Assembly (NCBI GenBank): GCA_044892525.1
Contig: CM097887.1
Span: 81,880,397-81,944,396 of the forward strand
Direction of reading: 5' to 3'
From: Schmidtea polychroa
Lineage: Eukaryota
Length of the DNA stretch: 64,000 nt
The translations under genes and the position numbers were made by a program. Under the pieces are notes generated by a model. The model worked only from the letters and a program-made list of their open reading frames with translations, did no database searches and was not told the DNA's origin. Position 1 is the first letter of the stretch. Every line of letters starts with the position of its first letter. Positions 99-24,243 of this stretch are shown here, piece after piece.

Positions 99-278
99 AT
101 TTTTTCCTAAATAAATTTTATCACATCAACATAAATCTTGTCTTGTCCGTTTTTGTTTCTAGTATTACAAAAATTCCAACAAAAAATCCTATTGATTGTC
201 CGACTTGTGTATGGGTTGGATTTTGATTTTTTCGGTACAGAATGCCACTTTATAGATTTAAATAGAAACCTCTCAAAT

Positions 279-304
279 ACTAAGCCCCTATAGCTCAGAG
301 GTTA
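279..304 (+). other. Variant tRNA 5' half plus 5-nt leader fused to ORF1 ATG
   Basis: ACTAA-GCCCCTATAGCTCAGAGGTTA aligns without gaps to the array's TGCAA-GCCTTCGTAGCTCAGTGGTTA (8 mismatches) and keeps an A-box-like TAGCTCAGAGG. Confidence 0.85.
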
Positions 305-2581
305 ATGGAAAAACACACAACGATGACGCAATCGCCTACGAATGAATTACTCATCAATCTCAATCAAAAATTACCGAATTTTGGATTACTCAATTGCAAA
401 ATTGCAAAATCTTCAATCATGTCTATGTTGAAATCTCAAATTCAACAATCTCAAGCTATTTTGGACCTGATTTCAAAAGATTCTGAAGAACCTTCAATTC
501 TGGAACCGGTTGAATCAATTAAAGAAATGCCAGAAGATTCTTTGGAATGCTCAAAGGAAAAGATGCCACTCCTTTTAAATTTGCCTTTTCCAATTGAGGA
601 AAGATTTCAGATACTGGAGAAGTCTATCGAATCTATATCTGGTAGGATTGATTTGATTTCTAATTTTCTTAATGTTAATAATGATGACAATAATAAAAAC
701 TTTTTTATTAAAAATTTAAAAGTAAATAATATTTCAAATAAGCATCTTCCTGTAATTTCTAACACTAAACCTGAAATTAATTCAAACTACTCTTCTAAAT
801 TAGTGGATAGTTCCGATAAATTGAAGGCGCCTTTTGTTGATGTTGAAATAGAGAAGTCGAAAACTCTGCATGTGGATTATAAGGGAAGTAATACTGCGTT
901 TAAAGAGGATAATGATATAGATAGATCAACTCGTATTTTGACAAAAAAAGAACGAGCTAATTTTTTGAAGAGCTTTCCAAAGTTTATTAATTTAATCAAA
1001 TTAGGTGAATCAAAATTTAAAGAGAATTTAATTAATTATGAACTTAATTTAATAACTAAATCAAAATTAAACTTTAATATTAATAATTTTGAAAAGTTAT
1101 ATTTTGAAAATGGAAAGTTTTTTATTTCTATTTATAACAAAAATGGAATGAGACCTGAGGTTAGGAATATGAAAGCTTTAATAAAACCTAAAATTATCTC
1201 TAGCAGTGGCCGAATTTTAAATAAAACTTTTATTTCAAGTTTAATTCGTACTGACAACAATTATAGTAAAATCTCTGCTTCTTTAGCAATTATGAAATTT
1301 TTATTTGCATTTTCTGACAAATTAGCTGCAACTGTTTCCATTAAAAATATTAATCAAAAGGGCTCTGTCATTAATAAAGAATTAGATTTACTAAAAAAAG
1401 AAAATAAACTTCCACAATTTTTAATAAATTCAGATATTAAATATCTAAATGGGGAATTTGTAATAAATGACATATTCAGTCCTTCAGAATCTCAAAATGA
1501 AGTTGTGAATCGCAGAGAGTTGTCTAGATCACAATTAAATCAATTATTTAAAAGTCATCCAGAGCTGAAAGAGATGTGTTTTGTTGAAAACTCATCTAAA
1601 TGTGCATCAAAATTGACTAATTTGTTACATAATTTAAAATTAAATAATAACTTTCTTGAGAATATTGAGTTTGATTCAGGAAGGTTTTTCAAATCTAAAG
1701 AAACTGTAAATAATGAATCAATTGGTGCGTCTGACATCATGTTTAACTTGGGACTGCTCAACTTCATTGACATTTCTAAGAAAAATGATGATTTTAAGGA
1801 ACTTCTACTTTCAACTTCTTCTCCTCAAAAGCTGGTTGATTTGATCTTTACGATAAATTATAAAATCTTGACGAAGGACATCAACTACTTGAACAACATT
1901 ACCTATGGAAATTATGTCATGAATTATTTTATAAATATTTTACTTTTACACTCTGTAGCTGATCTTGAAACTTGTGAATCTCTCACAATTGACGACTTTG
2001 ATTATTGGAGCGCTGACATGATAGAAAAAATTCCTTCTTCGTCATATTACTCTCAAAGTTGCAAGGAAAAGTTACTTAAATATAGGCAGTGGAAACTAGA
2101 GGGGGAAGTTGATAAACTAAGAAATATTATTTCGCCTGAGACAATTAATGTTGTTAATAAATTTTTGATTTCATCGGATGACTCTAATAAATCTATTAAG
2201 GAAGCAACTTTGAGTTTAGATGAACAAATGGACAAAATTAATACATTTAAACTAGGCGACAATGACCCAGACATTTTGAAATCTAAGCGGTTACTATACT
2301 TTATTTTGAGAGACAAGAAGTTGTTTCTAAGAAATAACAGCAAAATCTTCCAATTACCTATGACATGCAAAAAAATATGCACTCCAAAAATGTCATTATG
2401 TATTCATGAACTCTTGGACTTTCTTAAGGGGATAGAAAATCATTCATCTCCGATCTTTCCTACAATAGTTGACTCTCCATTGGTTATTGAATCACTTCCA
2501 ACTGATATAGACGCTGAGACGGATACAATAAAATCTCGTACTCGAAATGGTCGAAGAAGAGCGTTATCCGATTCTAAATGA
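305..2581 (+). CDS. Retrotransposon ORF1, 758 aa, unknown function
   Basis: Long ORF intact in three copies; N-terminal coiled-coil-like EERFQILEKSIESISGRIDLI; basic C-tail; no domain recognised. Confidence 0.85.
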   Translation: MEKHTTMTQSPTNELLINLNQKLPNFGLLNCKIAKSSIMSMLKSQIQQSQAILDLISKDSEEPSILEPVESIKEMPEDSLECSKEKMPLLLNLPFPIEERFQILEKSIESISGRIDLISNFLNVNNDDNNKNFFIKNLKVNNISNKHLPVISNTKPEINSNYSSKLVDSSDKLKAPFVDVEIEKSKTLHVDYKGSNTAFKEDNDIDRSTRILTKKERANFLKSFPKFINLIKLGESKFKENLINYELNLITKSKLNFNINNFEKLYFENGKFFISIYNKNGMRPEVRNMKALIKPKIISSSGRILNKTFISSLIRTDNNYSKISASLAIMKFLFAFSDKLAATVSIKNINQKGSVINKELDLLKKENKLPQFLINSDIKYLNGEFVINDIFSPSESQNEVVNRRELSRSQLNQLFKSHPELKEMCFVENSSKCASKLTNLLHNLKLNNNFLENIEFDSGRFFKSKETVNNESIGASDIMFNLGLLNFIDISKKNDDFKELLLSTSSPQKLVDLIFTINYKILTKDINYLNNITYGNYVMNYFINILLLHSVADLETCESLTIDDFDYWSADMIEKIPSSSYYSQSCKEKLLKYRQWKLEGEVDKLRNIISPETINVVNKFLISSDDSNKSIKEATLSLDEQMDKINTFKLGDNDPDILKSKRLLYFILRDKKLFLRNNSKIFQLPMTCKKICTPKMSLCIHELLDFLKGIENHSSPIFPTIVDSPLVIESLPTDIDAETDTIKSRTRNGRRRALSDSK

Positions 2582-5500
2582 AAATGTGTGCCTGCATCAG
2601 TGAAAATATCTGCTCCGTTCTCATATGAAACTGATGCAGAATGCACAAATAAACTTTCTGAAATTGACCGAACACGCTGGTTTACTGATGATGAAATTGA
2701 TTATTTCCTTCTACATCATATCAATAATCCAATGTTTACCTTTATAAGATGTTTCATTGTTAGTATCTTATGTTCTGATATTGCTGAAAATGTTGTTGAT
2801 CTTCCCAAAGCTATTTTTGAAGCTCAAGTAATTCTATGTCCACTCAACATTAACAACTCACATTGGGTCTTGTTTGTTTATTGTAAATCTTCATTAACTT
2901 CTTATTTTATCGATCCGATCTTGAAGAATAGAAATAGATTAGTAAATAAGGAGAGAGCTGTTAAAATAAACAATGTATTAAATTGTACTTTCAATCTTGA
3001 TTCATTAATAATTGAACACCCGTATAAAGATCTTGTTTATCAAGATAATAATTACGATTGTGGTCCTTTCATTTGCGGTTATGCGATGATTGTATCGCAA
3101 GAATGGAGCTCAATTCCTAATACGTTTGTCGAATACATTAGGAAACAATTGTTTCACTGTCAATCTATTTCTACTGTATCAGGAGGTGGCTTATCTAAAA
3201 ATCATTTTCTCAATAAAATCAACTTCAAAAAGGCAATAAAACCTAAAAGCAAACCCATTATGAATGTCAAAATTATAAACCCTAATAATGAGAAAGCTTG
3301 TGTCTCATCTCTGATAAGCAAATGGTACGAAAAATATCCAAGTATATTAGTTCTTTCTCCCGAAATAACAAATAGTTTAATCAGTCAAAATGATAATTTT
3401 ATAATTGAAAATATTACATTTTTGCAATTTAGAAACGTTGATCATATAATTTGTATAATTCCTAACGATAATTGCTGGTGTCTATTGTTTTGCTCAGTCA
3501 AATATGGACATAGTTATCTTTTTGATCTTAAACCTGGTTCGATTACTGAAAGATTGATAGGAATTTGTGAAAATATTACCGATTATTTGAATAAATTTAC
3601 TCTAAATAAAAAGGTTTATTTTGAAAAGAATCAAAATGCTTTTCGTTTAAAAATTTCATCTGAAGATCCGTTTGAATATGCAGTTGGGTACATTGCCTTC
3701 TTAGAAAAATATCTTTTTAATAGAATATTTGATAGAGATTATGTGATTAAAACTCTCAAACATATGAATGTGCAGCAGGCAATTGAAATTAACAAAAATT
3801 TAAATTTAATTAATTGCAAAATTACTGATAAAATTATAACTAATTTTTTTAATAACTTGAAACATTCCTCAGATTTTATTTTACTTAATAATACAATGTG
3901 CACTGCAATTTATGAAGACTGTACTCAATATCTGAAAGATTTTTTAAATATTGAGCATTTGATAAAAGCACAGGTTATTTTTTGTATTATGGCCCCTCCT
4001 AAAGCTCAAGAAATATTGTTTGTCATTGACTATAAAACTGATGAGCATTACTTTCTCAATCCCTCAACTTTAATTACTAATTTTAATTATTTATTTACTA
4101 GTCAAACTTTGTTGCATAAAATCAACGAAATTAGAGAATCGGCCGGTTGTTGTATAAAATCTGGTAATATTCCGCATGATGTTCGTGGTTCTGGCCTTGT
4201 GAGTCGTGTACTCATTTGTGCTTTTATAAAAAACTATATTTCTGATTTATCTTTAGAGAACCTCAATTTATTTGATATAGGCAGTGTAATTACTTCTTTG
4301 TTACCTCCAATAACGGAAACGATCAAGGTTTCGAAAAAAGACTTAAATGTAAAAAAAGAAATTGAAAAACCTTCTTTGGAGCGTCGAATTGAGAAAATTA
4401 ATCTCCTTTTATCAAATTTAGAAAACAGCAACGTTAATGAAATCTGTAAGATAATCATTGACAATTCATTGCGTCAAAGATCAGATGACAAAACTATGAT
4501 TCGTAGACCTTATCTGGGAAATAAACCTTCTTACGACAAACCTGACAAAAATATACTAATATCTGGCTTCCTATCTAATATGAAATTGACAGTGAATAAA
4601 ATACTGGCTGATGAGAAAATTGATGAAAGACCTTCAATAACTGACTACATTTCTAATTTCACTCATTCTGATCCTGTCATTAAATCTTACGATAAAGTGT
4701 TTAATTTCTGTCTGAGTTCTTTGTCAACTCTAGTTCTGAATCTAATTTCCACTGAAGATGTAAAGTTTGAAATTAAAAAAGCAGACAACACTTCTCCTGG
4801 ACTTGATGATATCAAGTATAAAGATTTATCTATTTTTGATCCTGAATACAAATTATTGACATTTTTCTTTAACAAAATAATAGTCGATAAAAATGTTCCA
4901 GAATGTTTAAAATCTTTCAAAACAATTATGATTCCGAAGCCTGATAAAGGTGACAAGTACACTTTAGTTTCTTCATGGCGACCAATAGCTCTATTGTCAG
5001 TCATTTACAAAGTGTTTGCGTCAGTGTTAGCTAGTCGTTTGACCAGTTGGGTGAAGGTCAATAATTTACTACACATTGGTCAGAAAGGAGGCTCAATCCA
5101 CGACGGATGTGTTGAACATAACTCTGTTCTTTCTTCCTGCTTGGAACACTCAAAATACAGTAAAAACACTCCAATTGCTATAGCCTGGCTTGATATTAAA
5201 GACGCCTTTGGCAGTGTCCCTCATGATTACATGTGGAAAATCCTGCGTCGCGTTGGAGTCAGTGAGGAATTCACCAACATCTTGAAGCTGTTATATACCG
5301 ATACAAGTTCTTTCTACACTTGTGGTCCAATTATTACACCAAACATTGCCATTAAACAGGGTGTCAAACAAGGATGCCCTATTTCAATGATTTTGTTTGC
5401 AATTGCGATAAATCCTGTTCTTGAATCTGTTAGTCAATCAAATGTGAAACCTTTCAAAATTGCTGGATCTTCGGTTCAAGTTCTTGCATATGCTGATGAC

Positions 5501-7126
5501 ATTGCACTTGTTGCAAATAATGTTTCCGATTTACAACGCATAATTGACATTGCAGTCGATACTGCTAATGAAATAGGTTTTGAATATCGACCTGAAAAGT
5601 GTGCTTTTCTTGAACTTCCAAATATTAACTCTGAAAGTAAAATCACAATCAATGGAATAAATATTAAGAAACTTTTACCAAACGAATTTTACCAATATCT
5701 GGGAGTTCCAGTCGGTGAGGAAACTGACCAAAGTCCTTACGAGATTTTGAATAAAGTTATTGTTGATGCAAATAAAATTGCAGAATCTGACTTGTTGGGA
5801 TGGCAAAAATTGAAAGCCTACAAAGTCTTTCTACACTCGCGCCTAATCTTTCCATTTAGAACGAGAGAAATAAAGATCAGTGCTCTTTCAACAACACAAG
5901 TTAATTGTACGAGTAAACTGAGAAGTATTCTAAGAAAGATCTTGAATTTGCCCAACCATTCTGAGACCAGTTATCTTTACAACTCCATTGAAAATGGAGG
6001 TGCGTCTTGTATTGATCTTCTTGATGAATATCATACACAGACGATTAGTCATTTTTTCCGACTCTTTACCTCTAATTGCATGTTCACTCGTAATATCAAT
6101 ATTGACTCTTTGAAATTCGTCACTGGTCCTCGACTGGGAATCAAGGAACCATCAATGCAAGAGAGTTTCAACTGGATAAATGGAGCTGAAAATATCAAAA
6201 CTCATTCTGGAAAGAAAACGAGATTCTATCGACCTCGGATAGCAATCAAGTACTTTCAAAGAACTCATGGTATTACCTTGTCTTTTGAAGTCGAGAAAAA
6301 TGAGCCTGTTCTTCGATTTACAACTATCGAACGTGGTACTTGTGTGTTGACAGCTTTGAATCGGAAAGCGATTTCTAAAATCATACATATTGCACTTTAT
6401 GATGCTTATTTTTCTAAATGGAAATTAAGTAGCACGAGTGGATCTTGTGCTTATAGTTTATCACCGAAAATCAATAAAGCGATTTACAATGGCAATCTTC
6501 GTGAAAGTCCTTGGAAATTCATACATCGTGCACGTACAAACACATTGTCTACCTTTGCTAAACCTTATCGAAAACCTGATGATAGACTTTGTAGGCGTTG
6601 TCATATTGAAGAGGAAACACTTTGCCATGTTCTGCAAACATGCAAAATTCACCAAATCCTTGCTCTTAAAAGACATAACGAATGCTTACGACTTATTACT
6701 GAGCAACTGAAAAATCCTTTTCTTATTGTTGTTATTGACCACACTTGTTCACTTGTTGTTGACTCTAAGGAGCGAGTTGATTTAATGATAACGGATAATG
6801 ATAAAAAGAAAATTTTCATGGTAGACGTCAAATGTCCTTTTGACACTCTACAAACCTTTGAAACGGTAGATAAAGGAAATTTGACAAAATACGATAATCT
6901 TCGACAGCAAATACAAGTTGCAAAGCCAAATTTTAAGGTGGAACTTTATACTTGTATCATTGGCTCATTAGGTTCTGTTCCACCAATGACATATGATGTG
7001 CTTGAGAAGATTGGAGTACCTAATCATAAAGTTGAATCTCTTGTAAGAGAATGTGCAATGAGCAATATAATGCACTCGGCTAAATCTTGGCATTACCATG
7101 CATATGGTATCTTACCAGGCTTCTAA
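2582..7126 (+). CDS. Retrotransposon ORF2: Ulp1/SENP-like cysteine protease, reverse transcriptase, CCHC finger, restriction-like endonuclease
   Basis: Numbering from GTG 2588: WFTDDEIDYF, H92 (NSHW), D109, Q152, C158 (QDNNYDCG); RT motifs SPGLDD, WRPIAL, LDIKDAFGSV, GVKQGCPIS, YADD (5489-5500), YLGV; CX2CX8HX4C at 6590-6643; RH, RVD, DVKCP, KY endonuclease motifs. Frame is open from 2582; first ATG is 2732. Confidence 0.95.
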   Translation, partial: KCVPASVKISAPFSYETDAECTNKLSEIDRTRWFTDDEIDYFLLHHINNPMFTFIRCFIVSILCSDIAENVVDLPKAIFEAQVILCPLNINNSHWVLFVYCKSSLTSYFIDPILKNRNRLVNKERAVKINNVLNCTFNLDSLIIEHPYKDLVYQDNNYDCGPFICGYAMIVSQEWSSIPNTFVEYIRKQLFHCQSISTVSGGGLSKNHFLNKINFKKAIKPKSKPIMNVKIINPNNEKACVSSLISKWYEKYPSILVLSPEITNSLISQNDNFIIENITFLQFRNVDHIICIIPNDNCWCLLFCSVKYGHSYLFDLKPGSITERLIGICENITDYLNKFTLNKKVYFEKNQNAFRLKISSEDPFEYAVGYIAFLEKYLFNRIFDRDYVIKTLKHMNVQQAIEINKNLNLINCKITDKIITNFFNNLKHSSDFILLNNTMCTAIYEDCTQYLKDFLNIEHLIKAQVIFCIMAPPKAQEILFVIDYKTDEHYFLNPSTLITNFNYLFTSQTLLHKINEIRESAGCCIKSGNIPHDVRGSGLVSRVLICAFIKNYISDLSLENLNLFDIGSVITSLLPPITETIKVSKKDLNVKKEIEKPSLERRIEKINLLLSNLENSNVNEICKIIIDNSLRQRSDDKTMIRRPYLGNKPSYDKPDKNILISGFLSNMKLTVNKILADEKIDERPSITDYISNFTHSDPVIKSYDKVFNFCLSSLSTLVLNLISTEDVKFEIKKADNTSPGLDDIKYKDLSIFDPEYKLLTFFFNKIIVDKNVPECLKSFKTIMIPKPDKGDKYTLVSSWRPIALLSVIYKVFASVLASRLTSWVKVNNLLHIGQKGGSIHDGCVEHNSVLSSCLEHSKYSKNTPIAIAWLDIKDAFGSVPHDYMWKILRRVGVSEEFTNILKLLYTDTSSFYTCGPIITPNIAIKQGVKQGCPISMILFAIAINPVLESVSQSNVKPFKIAGSSVQVLAYADDIALVANNVSDLQRIIDIAVDTANEIGFEYRPEKCAFLELPNINSESKITINGINIKKLLPNEFYQYLGVPVGEETDQSPYEILNKVIVDANKIAESDLLGWQKLKAYKVFLHSRLIFPFRTREIKISALSTTQVNCTSKLRSILRKILNLPNHSETSYLYNSIENGGASCIDLLDEYHTQTISHFFRLFTSNCMFTRNINIDSLKFVTGPRLGIKEPSMQESFNWINGAENIKTHSGKKTRFYRPRIAIKYFQRTHGITLSFEVEKNEPVLRFTTIERGTCVLTALNRKAISKIIHIALYDAYFSKWKLSSTSGSCAYSLSPKINKAIYNGNLRESPWKFIHRARTNTLSTFAKPYRKPDDRLCRRCHIEEETLCHVLQTCKIHQILALKRHNECLRLITEQLKNPFLIVVIDHTCSLVVDSKERVDLMITDNDKKKIFMVDVKCPFDTLQTFETVDKGNLTKYDNLRQQIQVAKPNFKVELYTCIIGSLGSVPPMTYDVLEKIGVPNHKVESLVRECAMSNIMHSAKSWHYHAYGILPGF
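2587..2647 (+). promoter_or_regulatory. Predicted RNA hairpin just 3' of the ORF1 UGA (candidate readthrough stimulator)
   Basis: CTGCATCAGT 2592-2601 pairs perfectly with ACTGATGCAG 2630-2639; extended by TGTGC 2587-2591/GCACA 2643-2647 across a 3-nt bulge. Same in copies 2 and 3. Confidence 0.65.
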
Positions 7127-7635
7127 TTATTAAAAATCGATTGAAAATAATTAATTTTGTTTCTCATATTAATTAAAAAAAAAAAAAAACTGTCATCATT
7201 ATTTATTTAAAGCATTATGAGGAATTGAATATCATTTTAATCTTGCCACTTATTAGTTTTGATAACCTAAACATAATAATAATCTTTTCAATTCATCATG
7301 AAGAGGTGGTCTGTTCTAATTTCAGATTCGATAATGATGAAAAAATTCAGCTGAAACAAGAAATCTTTGCAGAAACCTAGAATGGCGCTTAATTAATTTG
7401 GCTCTAAAACTTCTGCAAGTGTTAAGCTAAGCCGGAAACGAATCTCCGATGAAATCCAATATGCCTGAGAAATTTCAAGAAACAAAGTGCTTTCGAGACG
7501 AGTATTCTCCCAACCGATATAATTATCATAGAGATTTTGATCACCCAAGTGCCGACATTTCTTGAATGGCTGTTCCAAGTTGAACGTTCTCAACAGATAA
7601 AAATCCAAAAACTTGTTATATTAATAAAATTTTAT
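7127..7635 (+). other. Structured 3' UTR of the retrotransposon
   Basis: Internal A15 (7175-7189); inverted repeats 7292-7299/7334-7341, 7366-7374/7411-7419, 7474-7482/7558-7566; terminal stem-loop 7564-7589; AATAAA just before the junction. Confidence 0.75.
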
Positions 7636-7862: not shown

Positions 7863-7935
7863 GCCTTCGTAGCTCAGTGGTTAGAGCACTGGTCTAGTAA
7901 ACCAGGGGTCGTGAGTTCAATTCTCACCGAAGGCA
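7863..7935 (+). tRNA. trnT: tRNA-Thr(AGT)
   Basis: Cloverleaf: GCCTTCG/CGAAGGC acceptor, GCTC/GAGC D-stem, CTGGT-CTAGTAA-ACCAG anticodon arm, GTGAG-TTCAATT-CTCAC T-arm, discriminator A. Confidence 0.95.
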
Positions 7936-7936
7936 A

Positions 7937-7942
7937 TTTTTT
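7937..7942 (+). terminator. Pol III terminator (T6), repeated after each tRNA of the 258-bp array
   Basis: TTTTTT begins 2 nt after the discriminator base. Confidence 0.8.
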
Positions 7943-8120
7943 CCTAAATAAATTTTATCACATCAACATTAATCTTGTCTTGTCCGTTTTTGTTTCTAGT
8001 ATTAGAAAAATTCCAACAAAAAATCCTATTGTTTGTCCGACTTGTGTATGGGTTGGATTTTGATTTTTTCGGTACAGAATGCCACTTTATAGATTTAAAT
8101 AGAAATCTCTCAAATTGCAA

Positions 8121-8193
8121 GCCTTAGTAGCTCAGTGGTTAGAGCACTGGTCTAGTAAACCAGGGGTCGTGAGTTCAATTCTCACCGAAGGCA
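8121..8193 (+). tRNA. trnT: tRNA-Thr(AGT), acceptor-stem variant (A6:G67 mismatch)
   Basis: As above but begins GCCTTAG. Confidence 0.85.
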
Positions 8194-8378
8194 ATTTTTT
8201 CCTAAATAAATTTTATCACATCAACATTAATCTTGTCTTGTCCGTTTTTGTTTCTAGTATTAGAAAAATTCCAACAAAAAATCCTATTGATTGTCCGACT
8301 TGTGTATGGGTTGGATTTTGAATTTTTCGGTACAGAATGCCACTTTATAGATTTAAATAGAAATCTCTCAAATTGCAA

Positions 8379-8451
8379 GCCTTCGTAGCTCAGTGGTTAG
8401 AGCACTGGTCTAGTAAACCAGGGGTCGTGAGTTCAATTCTCACCGAAGGCA
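8379..8451 (+). tRNA. trnT: tRNA-Thr(AGT)
   Basis: Perfect cloverleaf identical to 7863-7935. Confidence 0.95.
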
Positions 8452-8636: not shown

Positions 8637-8657
8637 GCCTTCGTAGCTCAGTGGTTA
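8637..8657 (+). pseudogene. 5' part (nt 1-21) of interrupted tRNA-Thr(AGT), array-type sequence
   Basis: GCCTTCGTAGCTCAGTGGTTA followed directly by the ATG of ORF1. Confidence 0.93.
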
Positions 8658-10934
8658 ATGGAAAAACACACAACGATGATGCAATCGCCTACGAATGAAT
8701 TACTCATCAATCTCAATCAAAAATTACCGAATTTTGGATTACTCAATTGCAAAATTGCAAAATCTTCAATCATGTCTATGTTGAAATCTCAAATTCAACA
8801 ATCTCAAGCTATTTTGGACCTGATTTCAAAAGATTCTGAAGAACCTTCAATTCTGGAACCGGTTGAATCAATTAAAGAAATGCCAGAAGATTCTTTGGAA
8901 TGCTCAAAGGAAAAGATGCCACTCCTTTTAAATTTGCCTTTTCCAATTGAGGAAAGATTTCAGATACTGGAGAAGTCTATCGAATCTATATCTGGTAGGA
9001 TTGATTTGATTTCTAATTTTCTTAATGTTAATAATGATGACAATAATAAAAACTTTTTTATTAAAAATTTAAAAGTAAATAATATTTCAAATAAGCATCT
9101 TCCTGTAATTTCTAACACTAAACCTGAAATTAATTCAAACTACTCTTCTAAATTAGTGGATAGTTCCGATAAATTGAAGGCGCCTTTTGTTGATGTTGAA
9201 ATAGAGAAGTCGAAAACTCTGCATGTGGATTATAAGGGAAGTAATACTGCGTTTAAAGAGGATAATGATATAGATAGATCAACTCGTATTTTGACAAAAA
9301 AAGAACGAGCTAATTTTTTGAAGAGCTTTCCAAAGTTTATTAATTTAATCAAATTAGGTGAATCAAAATTTAAAGAGAATTTAATTAATTATGAACTTAA
9401 TTTAATAACTAAATCAAAATTAAACTTTAATATTAATAATTTTGAAAAGTTATATTTTGAAAATGGAAAGTTTTTTATTTCTATTTATAACAAAAATGGA
9501 ATGAGACCTGAGGTTAGGAATATGAAAGCTTTAATAAAACCTAAAATTATCTCTAGCAGTGGCCGAATTTTAAATAAAACTTTTATTTCAAGTTTAATTC
9601 GTACTGACAACAATTATAGTAAAATCTCTGCTTCTTTAGCAATTAAGAAATTTTTATTTGCATTTTCTGACAAATTAGCTGCAACTGTTTCCATTAAAAA
9701 TATTAATCAAAAGGGCTCTGTCATTAATAAAGAATTAGATTTACTAAAAAAAGAAAATAAACTTCCACAATTTTTAATAAATTCAGATATTAAATATCTA
9801 AATGGGGAATTTGTAATAAATGACATATTCAGTCCTTCAGAATCTCAAAATGAAGTTGTGAATCGCAGAGAGTTGTCTAGATCACAATTAAATCAATTAT
9901 TTAAAAGTCATCCAGAGCTGAAAGAGATGTGTTTTGTTGAAAACTCATCTAAATGTGCATCAAAATTGACTAATTTGTTACATAATTTAAAATTAAATAA
10001 TAACTTTCTTGAGAATATTGAGTTTGATTCAGGAAGGTTTTTCAAATCTAAAGAAACTGTAAATAATGAATCAATTGGTGCGTCTGACATCATGTTTAAC
10101 TTGGGACTGCTCAACTTCATTGACATTTCTAAGAAAAATGATGATTTTAAGGAACTTCTACTTTCAACTTCTTCTCCTCAAAAGCTGGTTGATTTGATCT
10201 TTACGATAAATTATAAAATCTTGACGAAGGACATCAACTACTTGAACAATATTACCTATGGAAATTATGTCATGAATTATTTTATAAATATTTTACTTTT
10301 ACACTCTGTAGCTGATCTTGAAACTTGTGAATCTCTCACAATTGACGACTTTGATTATTGGAGCGCTGACATGATAGAAAAAATTCCTTCTTCGTCATAT
10401 TACTCTCAAAGTTGCAAGGAAAAGTTACTTAAATATAGGCAGTGGAAACTAGAGGGGGAAGTTGATAAACTAAGAAATATTATTTCGCCTGAGACAATTA
10501 ATGTTGTTAATAAATTTTTGATTTCATCGGATGACTCTAATAAATCTATTAAGGAAGCAACTTTGAGTTTAGATGAACAAATGGACAAAATTAATACATT
10601 TAAACTAGGCGACAATGACCCAGACATTTTGAAATCTAAGCGGTTACTATACTTTATTTTGAGAGACAAGAAGTTGTTTCTAAGAAATAACAGCAAAATC
10701 TTCCAATTACCTATGACATGCAAAAAAATATGCACTCCAAAAATGTCATTATGTATTCATGAACTCTTGGACTTTCTTAAGGGGATAGAAAATCATTCAT
10801 CTCCGATCTTTCCTACAATAGTTGACTCTCCATTGGTTATTGAATCACTTCCAACTGATATAGACGCTGAGACGGATACAATAAAATCTCGTACTCGAAA
10901 TGGTCGAAGAAGAGCGTTATCCGATTCTAAATGA
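8658..10934 (+). CDS. ORF1, copy 2 (758 aa)
   Basis: ATG at 8658 matches copies 1 and 3; two amino-acid differences from copy 1. Confidence 0.85.
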   Translation: MEKHTTMMQSPTNELLINLNQKLPNFGLLNCKIAKSSIMSMLKSQIQQSQAILDLISKDSEEPSILEPVESIKEMPEDSLECSKEKMPLLLNLPFPIEERFQILEKSIESISGRIDLISNFLNVNNDDNNKNFFIKNLKVNNISNKHLPVISNTKPEINSNYSSKLVDSSDKLKAPFVDVEIEKSKTLHVDYKGSNTAFKEDNDIDRSTRILTKKERANFLKSFPKFINLIKLGESKFKENLINYELNLITKSKLNFNINNFEKLYFENGKFFISIYNKNGMRPEVRNMKALIKPKIISSSGRILNKTFISSLIRTDNNYSKISASLAIKKFLFAFSDKLAATVSIKNINQKGSVINKELDLLKKENKLPQFLINSDIKYLNGEFVINDIFSPSESQNEVVNRRELSRSQLNQLFKSHPELKEMCFVENSSKCASKLTNLLHNLKLNNNFLENIEFDSGRFFKSKETVNNESIGASDIMFNLGLLNFIDISKKNDDFKELLLSTSSPQKLVDLIFTINYKILTKDINYLNNITYGNYVMNYFINILLLHSVADLETCESLTIDDFDYWSADMIEKIPSSSYYSQSCKEKLLKYRQWKLEGEVDKLRNIISPETINVVNKFLISSDDSNKSIKEATLSLDEQMDKINTFKLGDNDPDILKSKRLLYFILRDKKLFLRNNSKIFQLPMTCKKICTPKMSLCIHELLDFLKGIENHSSPIFPTIVDSPLVIESLPTDIDAETDTIKSRTRNGRRRALSDSK

Positions 10935-13900
10935 AAATGTGTGCCTGCATCAGTGAAAATATCTGCTCCGTTCTCATATGAAACTGATGCAGAATGCACA
11001 AATAAACTTTCTGAAATTGACCGAACACGCTGGTTTACTGATGATGAAATTGATTATTTCCTTCTACATCATATCAATAATCCAATGTTTACCTTTATAA
11101 GATGTTTCATTGTTAGTATCTTATGTTCTGATATTGCTGAAAATGTTGTTGATCTTCCCAAAGCTATTTTTGAAGCTCAAGTAATTCTATGTCCACTCAA
11201 CATTAACAACTCACATTGGGTCTTGTTTGTTTATTGTAAATCTTCATTAACTTCTTATTTTATCGATCCGATCTTGAAGAATAGAAATAGATTAGTAAAT
11301 AAGGAGAGAGCTGTTAAAATAAACAATGTATTAAATTGTACTTTCAATCTTGATTCATTAATAATTGAACACCCGTATAAAGATCTTGTTTATCAAGATA
11401 ATAATTACGATTGTGGTCCTTTCATTTGCGGTTATGCGATGATTGTATCGCAAGAATGGAGCTCAATTCCTAATACGTTTGTCGAATACATTAGGAAACA
11501 ATTGTTTCACTGTCAATCTATTTCTACTGTATCAGGAGGTGGCTTATCTAAAAATCATTTTCTCAATAAAATCAACTTCAAAAAGGCAATAAAACCTAAA
11601 AGCAAACCCATTATGAATGTCAAAATTATAAACCCTAATAATGAGAAAGCTTGTGTCTCATCTCTGATAAGCAAATGGTACGAAAAATATCCAAGTATAT
11701 TAGTTCTTTCTCCCGAAATAACAAATAGTTTAATCAGTCAAAATGATAATTTTATAATTGAAAATATTACATTTTTGCAATTTAGAAACGTTGATCATAT
11801 AATTTGTATAATTCCTAACGATAATTGCTGGTGTCTATTGTTTTGCTCAGTCAAATATGGACATAGTTATCTTTTTGATCTTAAACCTGGTTCGATTACT
11901 GAAAGATTGATAGGAATTTGTGAAAATATTACCGATTATTTGAATAAATTTACTCTAAATAAAAAGGTTTATTTTGAAAAGAATCAAAATGCTTTTCGTT
12001 TAAAAATTTCATCTGAAGATCCGTTTGAATATGCAGTTGGGTACATTGCCTTCTTAGAAAAATATCTTTTTAATAGAATATTTGATAGAGATTATGTGAT
12101 TAAAACTCTCAAACATATGAATGTGCAGCAGGCAATTGAAATTAACAAAAATTTAAATTTAATTAATTGCAAAATTACTGATAAAATTATAACTAATTTT
12201 TTTAATAACTTGAAACATTCCTCAGATTTTATTTTACTTAATAATACAATGTGCACTGCAATTTATGAAGACTGTACTCAATATCTGAAAGATTTTTTAA
12301 ATATTGAGTATTTGATAAAAGCACAGGTTATTTTTTGTATTATGGCCCCTCCTAAAGCTCAAGAAATATTGTTTGTCATTGACTATAAAACTGATGAGCA
12401 TTACTTTCTCAATCCCTCAACTTTAATTACTAATTTTAATTATTTATTTACTAGTCAAACTTTGTTGCATAAAATCAACGAAATTAGAGAATCGGCCGGT
12501 TGTTGTATAAAATCTGGTAATATTCCGCATGATGTTCGTGGTTCTGGCCTTGTGAGTCGTGTACTCATTTGTGCTTTTATAAAAAACTATATTTCTGATT
12601 TATCTTTAGAGAACCTCAATTTATTTGATATAGGCAGTGTAATTACTTCTTTGTTACCTCCAATAACGGAAACGATCAAGGTTTCGAAAAAAGACTTAAA
12701 TGTAAAAAAAGAAATTGAAAAACCTTCTTTGGAGCGTCGAATTGAGAAAATTAATCTCCTTTTATCAAATTTAGAAAACAGCAACGTTAATGAAATCTGT
12801 AAGATAATCATTGACAATTCATTGCGTCAAAGATCAGATGACAAAACTATGATTCGTAGACCTTATCTGGGAAATAAACCTTCTTACGACAAACCTGACA
12901 AAAATATACTAATATCTGGCTTCCTATCTAATATGAAATTGACAGTGAATAAAATACTGGCTGATGAGAAAATTGATGAAAGACCTTCAATAACTGACTA
13001 CATTTCTAATTTCACTCATTCTGATCCTGTCATTAAATCTTACGATAAAGTGTTTAATTTCTGTCTGAGTTCTTTGTCAACTCTAGTTCTGAATCTAATT
13101 TCCACTGAAGATGTAAAGTTTGAAATTAAAAAAGCAGACAACACTTCTCCTGGACTTGATGATATCAAGTATAAAGATTTATCTATTTTTGATCCTGAAT
13201 ACAAATTATTGACATTTTTCTTTAACAAAATAATAGTCGATAAAAATGTTCCAGAATGTTTAAAATCTTTCAAAACAATTATGATTCCGAAGCCTGATAA
13301 AGGTGACAAGTACACTTTAGTTTCTTCATGGCGACCAATAGCTCTATTGTCAGTCATTTACAAAGTGTTTGCGTCAGTGTTAGCTAGTCGTTTGACCAGT
13401 TGGGTGAAGGTCAATAATTTACTACACATTGGTCAGAAAGGAGGCTCAATCCACGACGGATGTGTTGAACATAACTCTGTTCTTTCTTCCTGCTTGGAAC
13501 ACTCAAAATACAGTAAAAACACTCCAATTGCTATAGCCTGGCTTGATATTAAAGACGCCTTTGGCAGTGTCCCTCATGATTACATGTGGAAAATCCTGCG
13601 TCGCGTTGGAGTCAGTGAGGAATTCACCAACATCTTGAAGCTGTTATATACCGATACAAGTTCTTTCTACACTTGTGGTCCAATTATTACACCAAACATT
13701 GCCATTAAACAGGGTGTCAAACAAGGATGCCCTATTTCAATGATTTTGTTTGCAATTGCGATAAATCCTGTTCTTGAATCTGTTAGTCAATCAAATGTGA
13801 AACCTTTCAAAATTGCTGGATCTTCGGTTCAAGTTCTTGCATATGCTGATGACATTGCACTTGTTGCAAATAATGTTTCCGATTTACAACGCATAATTGA

Positions 13901-15479
13901 CATTGCAGTCGATACTGCTAATGAAATAGGTTTTGAATATCGACCTGAAAAGTGTGCTTTTCTTGAACTTCCAAATATTAACTCTGAAAGTAAAATCACA
14001 ATCAATGGAATAAATATTAAGAAACTTTTACCAAACGAATTTTACCAATATCTGGGAGTTCCAGTCGGTGAGGAAACTGACCAAAGTCCTTACGAGATTT
14101 TGAATAAAGTTATTGTTGATGCAAATAAAATTGCAGAATCTGACTTGTTGGGATGGCAAAAATTGAAAGCCTACAAAGTCTTTCTACACTCGCGCCTAAT
14201 CTTTCCATTTAGAACGAGAGAAATAAAGATCAGTGCTCTTTCAACAACACAAGTTAATTGTACGAGTAAACTGAGAAGTATTCTAAGAAAGATCTTGAAT
14301 TTGCCCAACCATTCTGAGACCAGTTATCTTTACAACTCCATTGAAAATGGAGGTGCGTCTTGTATTGATCTTCTTGATGAATATCATACACAGACGATTA
14401 GTCATTTTTTCCGACTCTTTACCTCTAATTGCATGTTCACTCGTAATATCAATATTGACTCTTTGAAATTCGTCACTGGTCCTCGACTGGGAATCAAGGA
14501 ACCATCAATGCAAGAGAGTTTCAACTGGATAAATGGAGCTGAAAATATCAAAACTCATTCTGGAAAGAAAACGAGATTCTATCGACCTCGGATAGCAATC
14601 AAGTACTTTCAAAGAACTCATGGTATTACCTTGTCTTTTGAAGTCGAGAAAAATGAGCCTGTTCTTCGATTTACAACTATCGAACGTGGTACTTGTGTGT
14701 TGACAGCTTTGAATCGGAAAGCGATTTCTAAAATCATACATATTGCACTTTATGATGCTTATTTTTCTAAATGGAAATTAAGTAGCACGAGTGGATCTTG
14801 TGCTTATAGTTTATCACCGAAAATCAATAAAGCGATTTACAATGGCAATCTTCGTGAAAGTCCTTGGAAATTCATACATCGTGCACGTACAAACACATTG
14901 TCTACCTTTGCTAAACCTTATCGAAAACCTGATGATAGACTTTGTAGGCGTTGTCATATTGAAGAGGAAACACTTTGCCATGTTCTGCAAACATGCAAAA
15001 TTCACCAAATCCTTGCTCTTAAAAGACATAACGAATGCTTACGACTTATTACTGAGCAACTGAAAAATCCTTTTCTTATTGTTGTTATTGACCACACTTG
15101 TTCACTTGTTGTTGACTCTAAGGAGCGAGTTGATTTAATGATAACGGATAATGATAAAAAGAAAATTTTCATGGTAGACGTCAAATGTCCTTTTGACACT
15201 CTACAGACCTTTGAAACGGTAGATAAAGGAAATTTGACAAAATACGATAATCTTCGACAGCAAATACAAGTTGCAAAGCCAAATTTTAAGGTGGAACTTT
15301 ATACTTGTATCATTGGCTCATTAGGTTCTGTTCCACCAATGACATATGATGTGCTTGAGAAGATTGGAGTACCTAATCATAAAGTTGAATCTCTTGTAAG
15401 AGAATGTGCAATGAGCAATATAATGCACTCGGCTAAATCTTGGCATTACCATGCATATGGTATCTTACCAGGCTTCTAA
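10935..15479 (+). CDS. ORF2, copy 2 (protease-RT-RLE), intact
   Basis: Same motifs as copy 1, one H>Y change; in frame with ORF1 after TGA 10932-10934. Confidence 0.95.
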   Translation, partial: KCVPASVKISAPFSYETDAECTNKLSEIDRTRWFTDDEIDYFLLHHINNPMFTFIRCFIVSILCSDIAENVVDLPKAIFEAQVILCPLNINNSHWVLFVYCKSSLTSYFIDPILKNRNRLVNKERAVKINNVLNCTFNLDSLIIEHPYKDLVYQDNNYDCGPFICGYAMIVSQEWSSIPNTFVEYIRKQLFHCQSISTVSGGGLSKNHFLNKINFKKAIKPKSKPIMNVKIINPNNEKACVSSLISKWYEKYPSILVLSPEITNSLISQNDNFIIENITFLQFRNVDHIICIIPNDNCWCLLFCSVKYGHSYLFDLKPGSITERLIGICENITDYLNKFTLNKKVYFEKNQNAFRLKISSEDPFEYAVGYIAFLEKYLFNRIFDRDYVIKTLKHMNVQQAIEINKNLNLINCKITDKIITNFFNNLKHSSDFILLNNTMCTAIYEDCTQYLKDFLNIEYLIKAQVIFCIMAPPKAQEILFVIDYKTDEHYFLNPSTLITNFNYLFTSQTLLHKINEIRESAGCCIKSGNIPHDVRGSGLVSRVLICAFIKNYISDLSLENLNLFDIGSVITSLLPPITETIKVSKKDLNVKKEIEKPSLERRIEKINLLLSNLENSNVNEICKIIIDNSLRQRSDDKTMIRRPYLGNKPSYDKPDKNILISGFLSNMKLTVNKILADEKIDERPSITDYISNFTHSDPVIKSYDKVFNFCLSSLSTLVLNLISTEDVKFEIKKADNTSPGLDDIKYKDLSIFDPEYKLLTFFFNKIIVDKNVPECLKSFKTIMIPKPDKGDKYTLVSSWRPIALLSVIYKVFASVLASRLTSWVKVNNLLHIGQKGGSIHDGCVEHNSVLSSCLEHSKYSKNTPIAIAWLDIKDAFGSVPHDYMWKILRRVGVSEEFTNILKLLYTDTSSFYTCGPIITPNIAIKQGVKQGCPISMILFAIAINPVLESVSQSNVKPFKIAGSSVQVLAYADDIALVANNVSDLQRIIDIAVDTANEIGFEYRPEKCAFLELPNINSESKITINGINIKKLLPNEFYQYLGVPVGEETDQSPYEILNKVIVDANKIAESDLLGWQKLKAYKVFLHSRLIFPFRTREIKISALSTTQVNCTSKLRSILRKILNLPNHSETSYLYNSIENGGASCIDLLDEYHTQTISHFFRLFTSNCMFTRNINIDSLKFVTGPRLGIKEPSMQESFNWINGAENIKTHSGKKTRFYRPRIAIKYFQRTHGITLSFEVEKNEPVLRFTTIERGTCVLTALNRKAISKIIHIALYDAYFSKWKLSSTSGSCAYSLSPKINKAIYNGNLRESPWKFIHRARTNTLSTFAKPYRKPDDRLCRRCHIEEETLCHVLQTCKIHQILALKRHNECLRLITEQLKNPFLIVVIDHTCSLVVDSKERVDLMITDNDKKKIFMVDVKCPFDTLQTFETVDKGNLTKYDNLRQQIQVAKPNFKVELYTCIIGSLGSVPPMTYDVLEKIGVPNHKVESLVRECAMSNIMHSAKSWHYHAYGILPGF

Positions 15480-15946
15480 TTATTAAAATTCGATTGAAAA
15501 TAATTAATTTTGTTTCTCATATTAATTAAAAAAAAAAAAAAAAAACTGTCATCATTATTTATTTAAAGCATTATGAGGAATTGAATATCATTTTAATCTT
15601 GCCACTTATTAGTTTTGATAACCTAAACATGATAATAATCTTTTCAATTCATCATGAAGAGCTGAAACAAGAAATCTTTGCAGAAACCTAGAATGGCGCT
15701 TAATTAATTTGGCTCTAAAACTTCTGCAAGTGTTAAGCTAAGCCGGAAACGAATCTCCGATGAAATCCAATATGCCTGAGAAATTTCAAGAAACAAAGTG
15801 CTTTCGAGACGAGTATTCTCCCAACCGATATAATTATCATAGAGATTTTGATCACCCAAGTGCCGACATTTCTTGAATGGCTGTTCCAAGTTGAACGTTC
15901 TCAACAGATAAAAATCCAAAAACTTGTTATATTAATAAAATTTTAT

Positions 15947-16168: not shown

Positions 16169-16194
16169 ACTAAGCCCCTATAGCTCAGAGGTTA
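16169..16194 (+). other. Variant tRNA 5' half plus leader fused to ORF1 ATG
   Basis: Identical to 279-304. Confidence 0.85.
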
Positions 16195-18471
16195 ATGGAA
16201 AAACACACAACGATGACGCAATCGCCTACGAATGAATTACTCATCAATCTCAATCAAAAATTACCGAATTTTGGATTACTCAATTGCAAAATTGCAAAAT
16301 CTTCAATCATGTCTATGTTGAAATCTCAAATTCAACAATCTCAAGCTATTTTGGACCTGATTTCAAAAGATTCTGAAGAACCTTCAATTCTGGAACCGGT
16401 TGAATCAATTAAAGAAATGCCAGAAGATTCTTTGGAATGCTCAAAGGAAAAGATGCCACTCCTTTTAAATTTGCCTTTTCCAATTGAGGAAAGATTTCAG
16501 ATACTGGAGAAGTCTATCGAATCTATATCTGGTAGGATTGATTTGATTTCTAATTTTCTTAATGTTAATAATGATGACAATAATAAAAACTTTTTTATTA
16601 AAAATTTAAAAGTAAATAATATTTCAAATAAGCATCTTCCTGTAATTTCTAACACTAAACCTGAAATTAATTCAAACTACTCTTCTAAATTAGTGGATAG
16701 TTCCGATAAATTGAAGGCGCCTTTTGTTGATGTTGAAATAGAGAAGTCGAAAACTCTGCATGTGGATTATAAGGGAAGTAATACTGCGTTTAAAGAGGAT
16801 AATGATATAGATAGATCAACTCGTATTTTGACAAAAAAAGAACGAGCTAATTTTTTGAAGAGCTTTCCAAAGTTTATTAATTTAATCAAATTAGGTGAAT
16901 CAAAATTTAAAGAGAATTTAATTAATTATGAACTTAATTTAATAACTAAATCAAAATTAAACTTTAATATTAATAATTTTGAAAAGTTATATTTTGAAAA
17001 TGGAAAGTTTTTTATTTCTATTTATAACAAAAATGGAATGAGACCTGAGGTTAGGAATATGAAAGCTTTAATAAAACCTAAAATTATCTCTAGCAGTGGC
17101 CGAATTTTAAATAAAACTTTTATTTCAAGTTTAATTCGTACTGACAACAATTATAGTAAAATCTCTGCTTCTTTAGCAATTAAGAAATTTTTATTTGCAT
17201 TTTCTGACAAATTAGCTGCAACTGTTTCCATTAAAAATATTAATCAAAAGGGCTCTGTCATTAATAAAGAATTAGATTTACTAAAAAAAGAAAATAAACT
17301 TCCACAATTTTTAATAAATTCAGATATTAAATATCTAAATGGGGAATTTGTAATAAATGACATATTCAGTCCTTCAGAATCTCAAAATGAAGTTGTGAAT
17401 CGCAGAGAGTTGTCTAGATCACAATTAAATCAATTATTTAAAAGTCATCCAGAGCTGAAAGAGATGTGTTTTGTTGAAAACTCATCTAAATGTGCATCAA
17501 AATTGACTAATTTGTTACATAATTTAAAATTAAATAATAACTTTCTTGAGAATATTGAGTTTGATTCAGGAAGGTTTTTCAAATCTAAAGAAACTGTAAA
17601 TAATGAATCAATTGGTGCGTCTGACATCATGTTTAACTTGGGACTGCTCAACTTCATTGACATTTCTAAGAAAAATGATGATTTTAAGGAACTTCTACTT
17701 TCAACTTCTTCTCCTCAAAAGCTGGTTGATTTGATCTTTACGATAAATTATAAAATCTTGACGAAGGACATCAACTACTTGAACAACATTACCTATGGAA
17801 ATTATGTCATGAATTATTTTATAAATATTTTACTTTTACACTCTGTAGCTGATCTTGAAACTTGTGAATCTCTCACAATTGACGACTTTGATTATTGGAG
17901 CGCTGACATGATAGAAAAAATTCCTTCTTCGTCATATTACTCTCAAAGTTGCAAGGAAAAGTTACTTAAATATAGGCAGTGGAAACTAGAGGGGGAAGTT
18001 GATAAACTAAGAAATATTATTTCGCCTGAGACAATTAATGTTGTTAATAAATTTTTGATTTCATCGGATGACTCTAATAAATCTATTAAGGAAGCAACTT
18101 TGAGTTTAGATGAACAAATGGACAAAATTAATACATTTAAACTAGGCGACAATGACCCAGACATTTTGAAATCTAAGCGGTTACTATACTTTATTTTGAG
18201 AGACAAGAAGTTGTTTCTAAGAAATAACAGCAAAATCTTCCAATTACCTATGACATGCAAAAAAATATGCACTCCAAAAATGTCATTATGTATTCATGAA
18301 CTCTTGGACTTTCTTAAGGGGATAGAAAATCATTCATCTCCGATCTTTCCTACAATAGTTGACTCTCCATTGGTTATTGAATCACTTCCAACTGATATAG
18401 ACGCTGAGACGGATACAATAAAATCTCGTACTCGAAATGGTCGAAGAAGAGCGTTATCCGATTCTAAATGA
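16195..18471 (+). CDS. ORF1, copy 3 (758 aa)
   Basis: Intact ORF matching copies 1 and 2. Confidence 0.85.
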   Translation: MEKHTTMTQSPTNELLINLNQKLPNFGLLNCKIAKSSIMSMLKSQIQQSQAILDLISKDSEEPSILEPVESIKEMPEDSLECSKEKMPLLLNLPFPIEERFQILEKSIESISGRIDLISNFLNVNNDDNNKNFFIKNLKVNNISNKHLPVISNTKPEINSNYSSKLVDSSDKLKAPFVDVEIEKSKTLHVDYKGSNTAFKEDNDIDRSTRILTKKERANFLKSFPKFINLIKLGESKFKENLINYELNLITKSKLNFNINNFEKLYFENGKFFISIYNKNGMRPEVRNMKALIKPKIISSSGRILNKTFISSLIRTDNNYSKISASLAIKKFLFAFSDKLAATVSIKNINQKGSVINKELDLLKKENKLPQFLINSDIKYLNGEFVINDIFSPSESQNEVVNRRELSRSQLNQLFKSHPELKEMCFVENSSKCASKLTNLLHNLKLNNNFLENIEFDSGRFFKSKETVNNESIGASDIMFNLGLLNFIDISKKNDDFKELLLSTSSPQKLVDLIFTINYKILTKDINYLNNITYGNYVMNYFINILLLHSVADLETCESLTIDDFDYWSADMIEKIPSSSYYSQSCKEKLLKYRQWKLEGEVDKLRNIISPETINVVNKFLISSDDSNKSIKEATLSLDEQMDKINTFKLGDNDPDILKSKRLLYFILRDKKLFLRNNSKIFQLPMTCKKICTPKMSLCIHELLDFLKGIENHSSPIFPTIVDSPLVIESLPTDIDAETDTIKSRTRNGRRRALSDSK

Positions 18472-21400: not shown

Positions 21401-22980
21401 TTGCAAATAATGTTTCCGATTTACAACGCATAATTGACATTGCAGTCGATACTGCTAATGAAATAGGTTTTGAATATCGACCTGAAAAGTGTGCTTTTCT
21501 TGAACTTCCAAATATTAACTCTGAAAGTAAAATCACAATCAATGGAATAAATATTAAGAAACTTTTACCAAACGAATTTTACCAATATCTGGGAGTTCCA
21601 GTCGGTGAGGAAACTGACCAAAGTCCTTACGAGATTTTGAATAAAGTTATTGTTGATGCAAATAAAATTGCAGAATCTGACTTGTTGGGATGGCAAAAAT
21701 TGAAAGCCTACAAAGTCTTTCTACACTCGCGCCTAATCTTTCCATTTAGAACGAGAGAAATAAAGATCAGTGCTCTTTCAACAACACAAGTTAATTGTAC
21801 GAGTAAACTGAGAAGTATTCTAAGAAAGATCTTGAATTTGCCCAACCATTCTGAGACCAGTTATCTTTACAACTCCATTGAAAATGGAGGTGCGTCTTGT
21901 ATTGATCTTCTTGATGAATATCATACACAGACGATTAGTCATTTTTTCCGACTCTTTACCTCTAATTGCATGTTCACTCGTAATATCAATATTGACTCTT
22001 TGAAATTCGTCACTGGTCCTCGACTGGGAATCAAGGAACCATCAATGCAAGAGAGTTTCAACTGGATAAATGGAGCTGAAAATATCAAAACTCATTCTGG
22101 AAAGAAAACGAGATTCTATCGACCTCGGATAGCAATCAAGTACTTTCAAAGAACTCATGGTATTACCTTGTCTTTTGAAGTCGAGAAAAATGAGCCTGTT
22201 CTTCGATTTACAACTATCGAACGTGGTACTTGTGTGTTGACAGCTTTGAATCGGAAAGCGATTTCTAAAATCATACATATTGCACTTTATGATGCTTATT
22301 TTTCTAAATGGAAATTAAGTAGCACGAGTGGATCTTGTGCTTATAGTTTATCACCGAAAATCAATAAAGCGATTTACAATGGCAATCTTCGTGAAAGTCC
22401 TTGGAAATTCATACATCGTGCACGTACAAACACATTGTCTACCTTTGCTAAACCTTATCGGAAACCTGATGATAGACTTTGTAGACGTTGTCATATTGAA
22501 GAGGAAACACTGCCATGTTCTGCAAACATGCAAAATTCACCAAATCCTTGCTCTTAAAAGACATAATGAATGCTTACGACTTATTACTGAGCAACTGAAA
22601 AATCCTTTTCTTATTGTTGTTATTGATCACACTTGTTCACTTGTTGTTGACTCTAAGGAGCGAGTTGATCTAATGATAACGGATAATGATAAAAAGAAAA
22701 TTTTCATGGTAGACATCAAATGTCCTTTTGACACTCTACAGACTTTTGAAACGGTAGATAAAGGAAATTTGACAAAATACGAAAATCTTCGAAAGCAAAT
22801 ACAAGTTGCGAAGCCAAATTTTATGGTTCTGTTCCACCAATGACATATGATGTGCTTGAGAAGATTGGAGTACCGAATAATAAAATTGAATCTCTTGTAA
22901 GAGAATGTGCAATGAGCAATATAACGCACTCGGCTAAATCTTGGCATTACCATGCATATGGTATCTTACCAGGATTCTAA
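18472..22980 (+). pseudogene. ORF2, copy 3, frameshifted within the CCHC finger
   Basis: Frame ends at 22557 after ACACTTTGCC>ACACTGCC; endonuclease motifs continue out of frame to the homologous stop at 22978-22980. Confidence 0.9.
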
Positions 22981-23706: not shown

Positions 23707-23779
23707 GCCTTCGTAGCTCAGTGGTTAGAGCACTGGTCTAGTAAACCAGGGGTCGTGAGTTCAATTCTCACCGAAGGCA
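23707..23779 (+). tRNA. trnT: tRNA-Thr(AGT)
   Basis: Perfect cloverleaf with T6 terminator. Confidence 0.95.
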
Positions 23780-24217: not shown

Positions 24218-24243
24218 ACTAAGCCCCTATAGCTCAGAGGTTA
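24218..24243 (+). other. Variant tRNA 5' half plus leader fused to an ORF1 fragment
   Basis: Identical to 279-304. Confidence 0.85.

Follow-up and report, generated by a model that had tools for sequence, protein, structure and literature searches.

The foreign tRNA sequence at the head of three of the four retrotransposon copies in the window (the whole stretch of 64,000 nucleotides that was analysed) was likely carried there on an element RNA. This RNA would have started in the host flank of a parent copy, from a predicted internal promoter and about 44–50 bases upstream of a conserved ORF1 methionine. We give this reading a probability of roughly 0.6. The foreign head (ACTAA-GCCCCTA) is found at 279, 16169 and 24218, and an array-type head at 8637; in all four copies an ATG follows directly on the head. 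The spacer 5′ of the three foreign heads is of the array type. The sequence-only reading had recorded these features correctly. It was also right that the variant is absent from intact local genes (0 of the five intact tRNA-Thr(AGT) genes of the window, which have a 258-bp period) and that GCCCCTA mispairs with the local 3′ acceptor strand, where three mismatches and one G-U pair can be read. Two further points stood in part. A foreign flank precedes the tRNA letters as proposed, but its length is 5–11 nt rather than 5 nt, its left edge floating in the TCAAAT block. The ATG at 305 does follow the head at the D-loop, but the ATG conserved in the family is the second in frame, at 323: its equivalent is kept in families C, D, F81 and G, whereas that at 305 is not always kept.

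Window positions 273–302 are identical over 30 nt to positions −11 to +19 of a tRNA-Thr(CGT) gene of contig C2, and the AGT gene differs from them at 8 of 30 positions, so that the head cannot be a product of chance. Judged by this identity, the donor of the foreign head is a different tRNA-Thr(CGT) gene on another contig. The genome search proposed earlier for a second tRNA with this head thus led to the tRNA-Thr(CGT) array on C2, which holds six element copies. The genome contains 839 matches to a 15-mer of the head. The 100 listed first are all on C2, and 99 of them lie within or at the edge of an array of TGT-TGT-CGT units. Because the AGT and CGT genes have TCAAAT in common at −11 to −6, the crossover can be placed only inside that block. 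The combination of AGT spacer and CGT head occurs three times genome-wide, always fused to the element. No intact unit carries it, and a pre-existing array variant is thereby ruled out. Coordinates are collected in the table.

Table. Features of the window, with positions counted from its first letter.
Feature	Position	Strand	Basis or remark
TCAAAT block shared by AGT and CGT upstream flanks; crossover interval	273..278	+	sequence comparison
Foreign head (copy 1), corresponding in the C2 tRNA-Thr(CGT) gene to tRNA positions 1–19 and the 5 bases of flank before them	279..302	+	identity to the C2 gene
Element-specific 5′ stretch (20 nt); its ATG at 305 is the first in frame	303..322	+	
ORF1, 758 aa	305..2581	+	no Pfam match
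Conserved Met of ORF1 and, overlapping it, a C/EBP-ATF-like site, TGA(C/T)GCAA; base 327 tracks with head type	323..332	+	
In-frame TGA that separates ORF1 from ORF2, with a predicted hairpin after it	2579..2680	+	
ORF2 open frame, first ATG at 2732: Ulp1-like protease, reverse transcriptase, CCHC knuckle, restriction-like endonuclease	2582..7126	+	
3′ UTR, AT-rich terminus joined to tRNA position 31	7127..7634	+	
Three intact tRNA-Thr(AGT) units, 258-bp period	7863..8451	+	
Copy 2, native AGT-type head, majority form of the array	8637..15945	+	
Copy 3, foreign CGT head, within a block duplicated with copy 1	16169..23478	+	
Two intact tRNA-Thr(AGT) units	23707..24037	+	
Copy 4, foreign CGT head and about 400 nt of ORF1, then a 1.9-kb satellite	24218..24636	+	

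Copies 1–3 are full length and copy 4 is a 5′ fragment only. From its domains and targets, the element is classified as a Ulp1-RT-RLE non-LTR retrotransposon of the planarian LIN/NeSL type. ORF1 gave no Pfam family and no usable Atlas match, which is uninformative either way. The Ulp1-like protease of ORF2 (Peptidase_C48, E 2e-09) lies upstream of the reverse transcriptase (RVT_1 at 734–992), and the best PDB matches are R2 proteins. The reverse transcriptase is followed by C-x2-C-x8-H-x4-C at 1287, RHN at 1314, RVD at 1348 and DVK at 1365, which we take to be the CCHC knuckle and the restriction-like endonuclease motif. Among the best 120 of 163 related proteins in other species none is a named LIN or R5 sequence, and 79 candidate metagenome contigs yielded no confirmed relative. 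ORF1 and ORF2 are in one frame with a single TGA between them (2579–2731), and the protease domain starts ahead of the first ATG of ORF2. The VPASV that follows the TGA resembles the MPAS/TV starts of related proteins. The TGA is kept in 19 of 19 full copies and in families C and D, and the hairpin predicted after it has a z of −2.1. ORF2 is likely made by read-through or from a non-AUG start. The 3′ UTR contains a poly(A) run (7176–7190); the element itself ends about 440 nt further on, without a poly(A) tail.

Genome-wide, 20 intact 5′ ends were found, six in the C2 array and 14 in AGT arrays. One 5′ junction is common to all 20, and the copies are not independent. The six ends on C2 all have CGT spacer and head. 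In the AGT arrays ten ends are AGT-type, three CGT-type and one mixed, so that copy 2, earlier taken for a special crossover nearer the ATG, simply has the majority head (10/14). Exact matching gave 24 3′ ends, of which 16 are in AGT, five in TGT and two in CGT genes (23 of 24 in tRNA-Thr genes) and one is in unrelated DNA; this count leaves out eight matches with one mismatch (the six that were read belong to another family with short repeats after it); eight matches with two mismatches were dropped as well. The element thus has three targets, the Thr AGT, TGT and CGT genes, and it enters all of them at the same 3′ junction, which lies in the anticodon arm. Loci L124–L129 hold another repeat, whose AT-rich 3′ terminus is nearly identical; GTA/GTC short repeats come after it, and it is possibly a microsatellite-targeting relative. 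In five C2 copies a TGT 3′ half is combined with the complete CGT spacer upstream. This arrangement would fit either recombination between copies or a join to the CGT gene next door, accompanied by a deletion or duplication.

The three foreign heads had been counted as three events, and shared markers reduce them to one. ORF1 occurs in two types, A and B, with 552 differing sites between them, and many copies are recombinants of the two. Each of copies 1, 3 and 4 combines the C2-type base at ORF1 +23 with the A-type base at +57, which indicates a single origin and a foreign tract of 49–88 nt. The spacer haplotype of copies 1 and 3 is present in 10 of 14 element flanks versus 2 of 183 intact units, and copy 4 has the common haplotype. 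Together with the duplicated block, these markers show that one CGT-headed junction arose in an AGT array and that DNA recombination within the array then gave copies 1, 3 and 4. A long 5′ transduction behind the common spacer haplotype of element flanks was considered and set aside, as it is not separable from array duplication.

We measured where the carried host flank ends by counting back from the conserved Met. In the window head the boundary lies 44–50 nt before it (tRNA position −5/−11), in L001 44 nt (CGT flank to −16), in L162 43–44 nt (AGT flank to −28/−29), in L160 42–45 nt (tRNA position −27), in L170/L171, which represent one event, 47–48 nt (no tRNA letters), and in L161 33 nt (tRNA position −18). 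Five of the six events therefore end 42–50 nt before the conserved Met, with tRNA positions that vary from −5 to −29 or are absent altogether. The boundary follows the ORF1 start and not tRNA +1, contrary to the earlier suggestion of an RNA that starts like a pre-tRNA leader, and the 5-nt spacing to the tRNA start is likely a coincidence. L160, at an array edge, and L001 and L162, which lack an intact 3′ end, are weaker witnesses. L161 together with L100 represents one element with an exact 3′ terminus, inserted in an unrelated repeat with a duplication of about 2.2 kb. It brings 18 nt of AGT spacer with it, and the exactness of its 3′ end speaks for a route through RNA. The off-array copies L170 and L171 retain, ahead of the ATG, just the first two bases of the element-specific 5′ sequence. 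The same two bases are held by the C2 junctions, and they are present in the AGT gene and absent from the CGT gene. An off-target insertion at G000:C2:119386000-119416000 (L136, L175, L176, L310) shows a flanking duplication of about 2.2 kb, split by a later 15-kb insertion.

Sister families were recovered by a search for related reverse transcriptases, which gave 147 matches among 2522 candidates; 40 were fetched. Family F81 is located in two arrays of one gene, called Lys by ARAGORN, which we take for an intron-bearing Leu gene. Among the 30 of its 49 starts that were read, all 14 copies in array 2 carry array-1 letters out to 61–68 nt, and 18 of 18 intact array-2 units differ from them. One F81 copy, located in a Trp array, brings along about 17 nt of F81 array flank, and carried ends in this family fall at 61–68, 37–42 and 21 nt. 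For family G, 107 pattern matches were obtained and 35 loci read, with 33 true starts (four of 37 rows, L302, L303, L304 and L317, were dropped as chance matches). Ten of the 33 5′ ends carry the spacer of another, non-homologous tRNA array: Asn spacer is found in Met, Cys and Ile arrays (37–68 nt from the Met) and Met spacer in a His array, and one further copy brings 29–33 nt of Met spacer into a Thr array. Five starts are short (about 6–27 nt) and 18 are native to the Asn or Met array, so that ends in this family range from about 6 to 68 nt. Intact units of the Asn and Met arrays contain the donor string; for the shorter pieces the matching was done by eye. The Asn, Met, Cys, Ile and His arrays have no long shared homology.

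Families F81, F74 and G join within spacer DNA and carry no tRNA 5′ half, a finding that speaks against the idea of transcription initiation borrowed from a tRNA gene. Such spacer-only joins between unrelated arrays indicate that leader capture is general to the lineage and needs no tRNA start. In every cross-array or off-array junction read, the carried flank extends at most 68 nt from the motif, and its reach varies by family. A single 44-nt offset for the whole lineage was rejected, G and F81 reaching 61–68 nt and many ends being shorter. The proposal that the element RNA carries a tRNA 5′ half and anneals it to the target is thus upheld in so far as host flank does travel and is joined by homology or microhomology, whereas the RNA route for the window head is what we infer. 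In family F76 (75–76% RT identity) the 3′ end lies at a 5S rRNA-like gene, identified as 5S by eye, in 8 of 10 fetched loci (L240–L247; for example G000:C1:86566500-86576000), and at L248 11 nt of upstream flank is carried off-array. Family D (58% ORF2 identity; L130, L131/L132, G000:C2:175.39-175.42 Mb) targets TGT genes of the C2 array, with its 3′ junction at tRNA +19, its 5′ junction at −5 and no tRNA head; the 5′ end of D2 is broken by another insertion.

A candidate for the internal promoter is a C/EBP-ATF-like word clustered at the 5′ ends. Twelve sites fall in the first 200 nt of five families, versus 22 in the other 37 kb; 0.6 are expected and none of 2000 shuffles reaches 12, although the pattern was set after inspection, which inflates the significance. 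In family G, which was not used for the pattern, three sites lie within the first 100 nt and the following 630–1000 nt are free of them; this brings the families with clustered sites to six. The sites precede the ATG in F74 and F76 and are on the reverse strand in F76 and F81; their position outside the ORF and on both strands places the constraint on DNA. The window's family has one clean site in types A and B and two in C. The word TGATGCAA is the published CARE (C/EBP-ATF response element) of mammalian stress genes (PMC8491098, of which part was available). It is matched exactly by sites of A, C and G and with one base off by those of B, D and F81. CARE has been described in mammalian stress genes (PMC8491098); in the present organism the sites are putative. 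Pol III alone cannot make the full RNA, as stated earlier: ORF1 has 26 runs of T4 or longer, seven of them T5 or longer, and the whole element has 65 runs of T4 or longer. No HDV-like or other described ribozyme was found in window 1–9200 with Rfam, which holds described families, at E <= 1.

In the mechanism that we favour, the C/EBP-ATF-like cluster at the ORF1 start would direct Pol II to start upstream, and the host flank would act as the 5′ UTR. After target-primed reverse transcription, the cDNA of this leader may anneal to the upstream strand at the new target, which is similar to it in part, and the pairing could be resolved to target letters, donor letters or a patchwork. The heads in the AGT arrays, in the numbers given above for target-type, donor-type and mixed ends, are as the heteroduplex model of R2 allows (PMC3774820, consulted in part). 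Some observations stand against a leader of fixed offset, namely the 33 nt of L161 and the spread of ends in G and F81. In copies 1 and 3 the foreign tract lies between a rare haplotype and an A-type body and has the look of a conversion patch. No C2 copy of the assembly combines a CGT head with C at +23 and an A-type body, as the predicted parent would, and a short leader alone leaves the five C2 copies with CGT spacer and TGT 3′ half unaccounted for.

The conversion-like look of copies 1 and 3 raises an alternative that we consider unlikely, in which gene conversion at the DNA level would have copied the head from a C2 element onto a resident copy of the AGT array and stopped at TCAAAT, where homology ends; RNA leaders might then exist, but not behind this junction. 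The short tract with local-type sequence on both sides, the ordinary-copy haplotype shared by copies 1 and 3 and the mosaic of two ORF1 types in element bodies all agree with it, as does a copy that looks reciprocal (AGT head, T at +23, B-type ORF1). It accounts less well for copy 4, which has the common haplotype and could be the original insertion, and for a boundary that agrees with off-array copies where there is no homology to convert from. Flank exchange between non-homologous arrays, as in family G, is hard for conversion to explain. Long Pol II read-through from the array or an upstream element, with short flanks left by reverse transcription stops or microhomology joins, appears improbable. 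The 5′ flanks are indeed more uniform than the 3′ flanks in both arrays, the rare haplotype extends to −151 in 10 of 14 AGT copies, the whole CGT spacer is present in all six C2 copies, and carried lengths are heterogeneous. The 68-nt limit on carried foreign flank speaks against long transcripts, however, array duplication explains the common flanks, and the motif cluster would be left unexplained.

We regard as very improbable that the RNA begins at the pre-tRNA start of a tRNA gene, about 5 nt upstream, through host initiation signals. The crossover interval, −11 to −6, is a place where a pre-tRNA could start; the AGT and CGT genes share TCAAAT there, and the TGT genes, which lack it, gave no 5′ flank to A or B copies. 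Yet other copies have boundaries at −16, −18 and −27 to −29, the spacer joins of F81, F74 and G contain no tRNA 5′ half, and a Pol III layout of the pre-tRNA type is absent, the B-box half of the gene being 7.3 kb away from the other and T4 runs starting at 379, inside the element. Array polymorphism or an assembly or polishing error is hardly credible. Short reads of C2 copies could be mis-assigned to near-identical starts, but the chimeric junction is present three times and always with the element, copy 4 has private changes, and the pattern recurs in three sister families. Our preferred reading remains that of an RNA-borne leader from the parent flank.

Both tRNA-targeting LIN elements and RNA-borne upstream target sequence are already known. 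In the portion of PMC4640811 available to us, the planarian LIN15_SM and LIN25_SM enter tRNA genes and are placed in the R5/LIN lineage of the NeSL clade, in which a Ulp1-type domain is found in nematode NeSL and one Utopia family and is not a universal trait. Compared by description and junctions, these two appear to be the closest described elements. Like the present element they are planarian, RLE-type and inserted in tRNA genes, with similar AT-rich 3′ ends, but the present one differs in its tRNA-Thr target and its anticodon-arm cut (PMC4640811). LIN15_SM uses four Arg isoacceptors with one 3′ junction, its single shown 5′ boundary keeps a long piece of tRNA-Arg(TCG), and the 5′ boundaries of LIN9_SM show variant 28S letters (PMC4640811). 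Discussion of 5′ leader capture, cross-array chimeras or promoters was not found in that portion, and no tRNA-Thr-targeting element was found in the literature covered, which is incomplete.

For R2, which retains upstream 28S sequence on its RNA, a cDNA-target heteroduplex has been proposed to prime the second strand (PMC3774820, in the part available, as for the statements on R2 that follow). The present element resembles R2 in its uniform 5′ junctions and in the propagation of junction variants. In R2 an HDV-like ribozyme cuts the rRNA co-transcript and there is one conserved target (PMC3774820), whereas no ribozyme was found here. In contrast to R2, the present element's own sequence ahead of the first ATG amounts to 2 nt, its leader length appears to be set internally, and its targets differ in sequence, so that the donor can be read.

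LINEs of the jockey, I and L1 type have internal Pol II promoters and show 5′ transduction, and they normally start at their own first base. The present element would resemble them in having promoter signals, here candidate ones, downstream of the start and copied along with it. It would differ in a predicted start within host flank and in candidate C/EBP-ATF-like signals that overlap the ORF1 start. A ribozyme-free, internally set leader that can be read as cross-array chimeras was not found in the incompletely covered literature, which included the accessible part of PMC5035012.

Attachment of the 5′ end is described as the least settled step of non-LTR integration (PMC3774820, in part). Because targets differ between arrays, each junction records the donor, the carried length and the crossover, and the cross-array junctions amount to a genome-written test of the heteroduplex model, with a predicted start site. 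They suggest that, next to the ribozyme and the host promoter, there is a third means of obtaining upstream target sequence, and they show how sequence passes between tRNA arrays of different chromosomes. A broader proposal is tentative, and we think it rather unlikely: the whole tRNA- and 5S-targeting lineage would lack a 5′ UTR of its own, a cluster of C/EBP-ATF (amino-acid-stress) sites within the ORF1 start would fire Pol II 45–70 nt upstream, and the borrowed leader would guide 5′ joining and move tRNA pieces between arrays, the elements being switched on by the uncharged-tRNA/ATF4 pathway. If true, it would tie a parasite of tRNA genes to tRNA stress.

Other features of the arrays were noted. 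A 1915-bp satellite occupies window 25000–45400 and 47500–48600 in about 11 units, composed of a decayed C-type ORF1 start, AGT spacer and tRNA 3′ halves, and a transposase-like ORF (46098–47441) interrupts its end. Intact AGT units at L096 and L086–L087 (G000:C3:81.81-81.83 Mb) form a higher-order repeat of spacer variants, and a few of them read TGT or AGA at the anticodon. At L139 and L130, internally deleted CGT and TGT genes are repeated in the C2 array.
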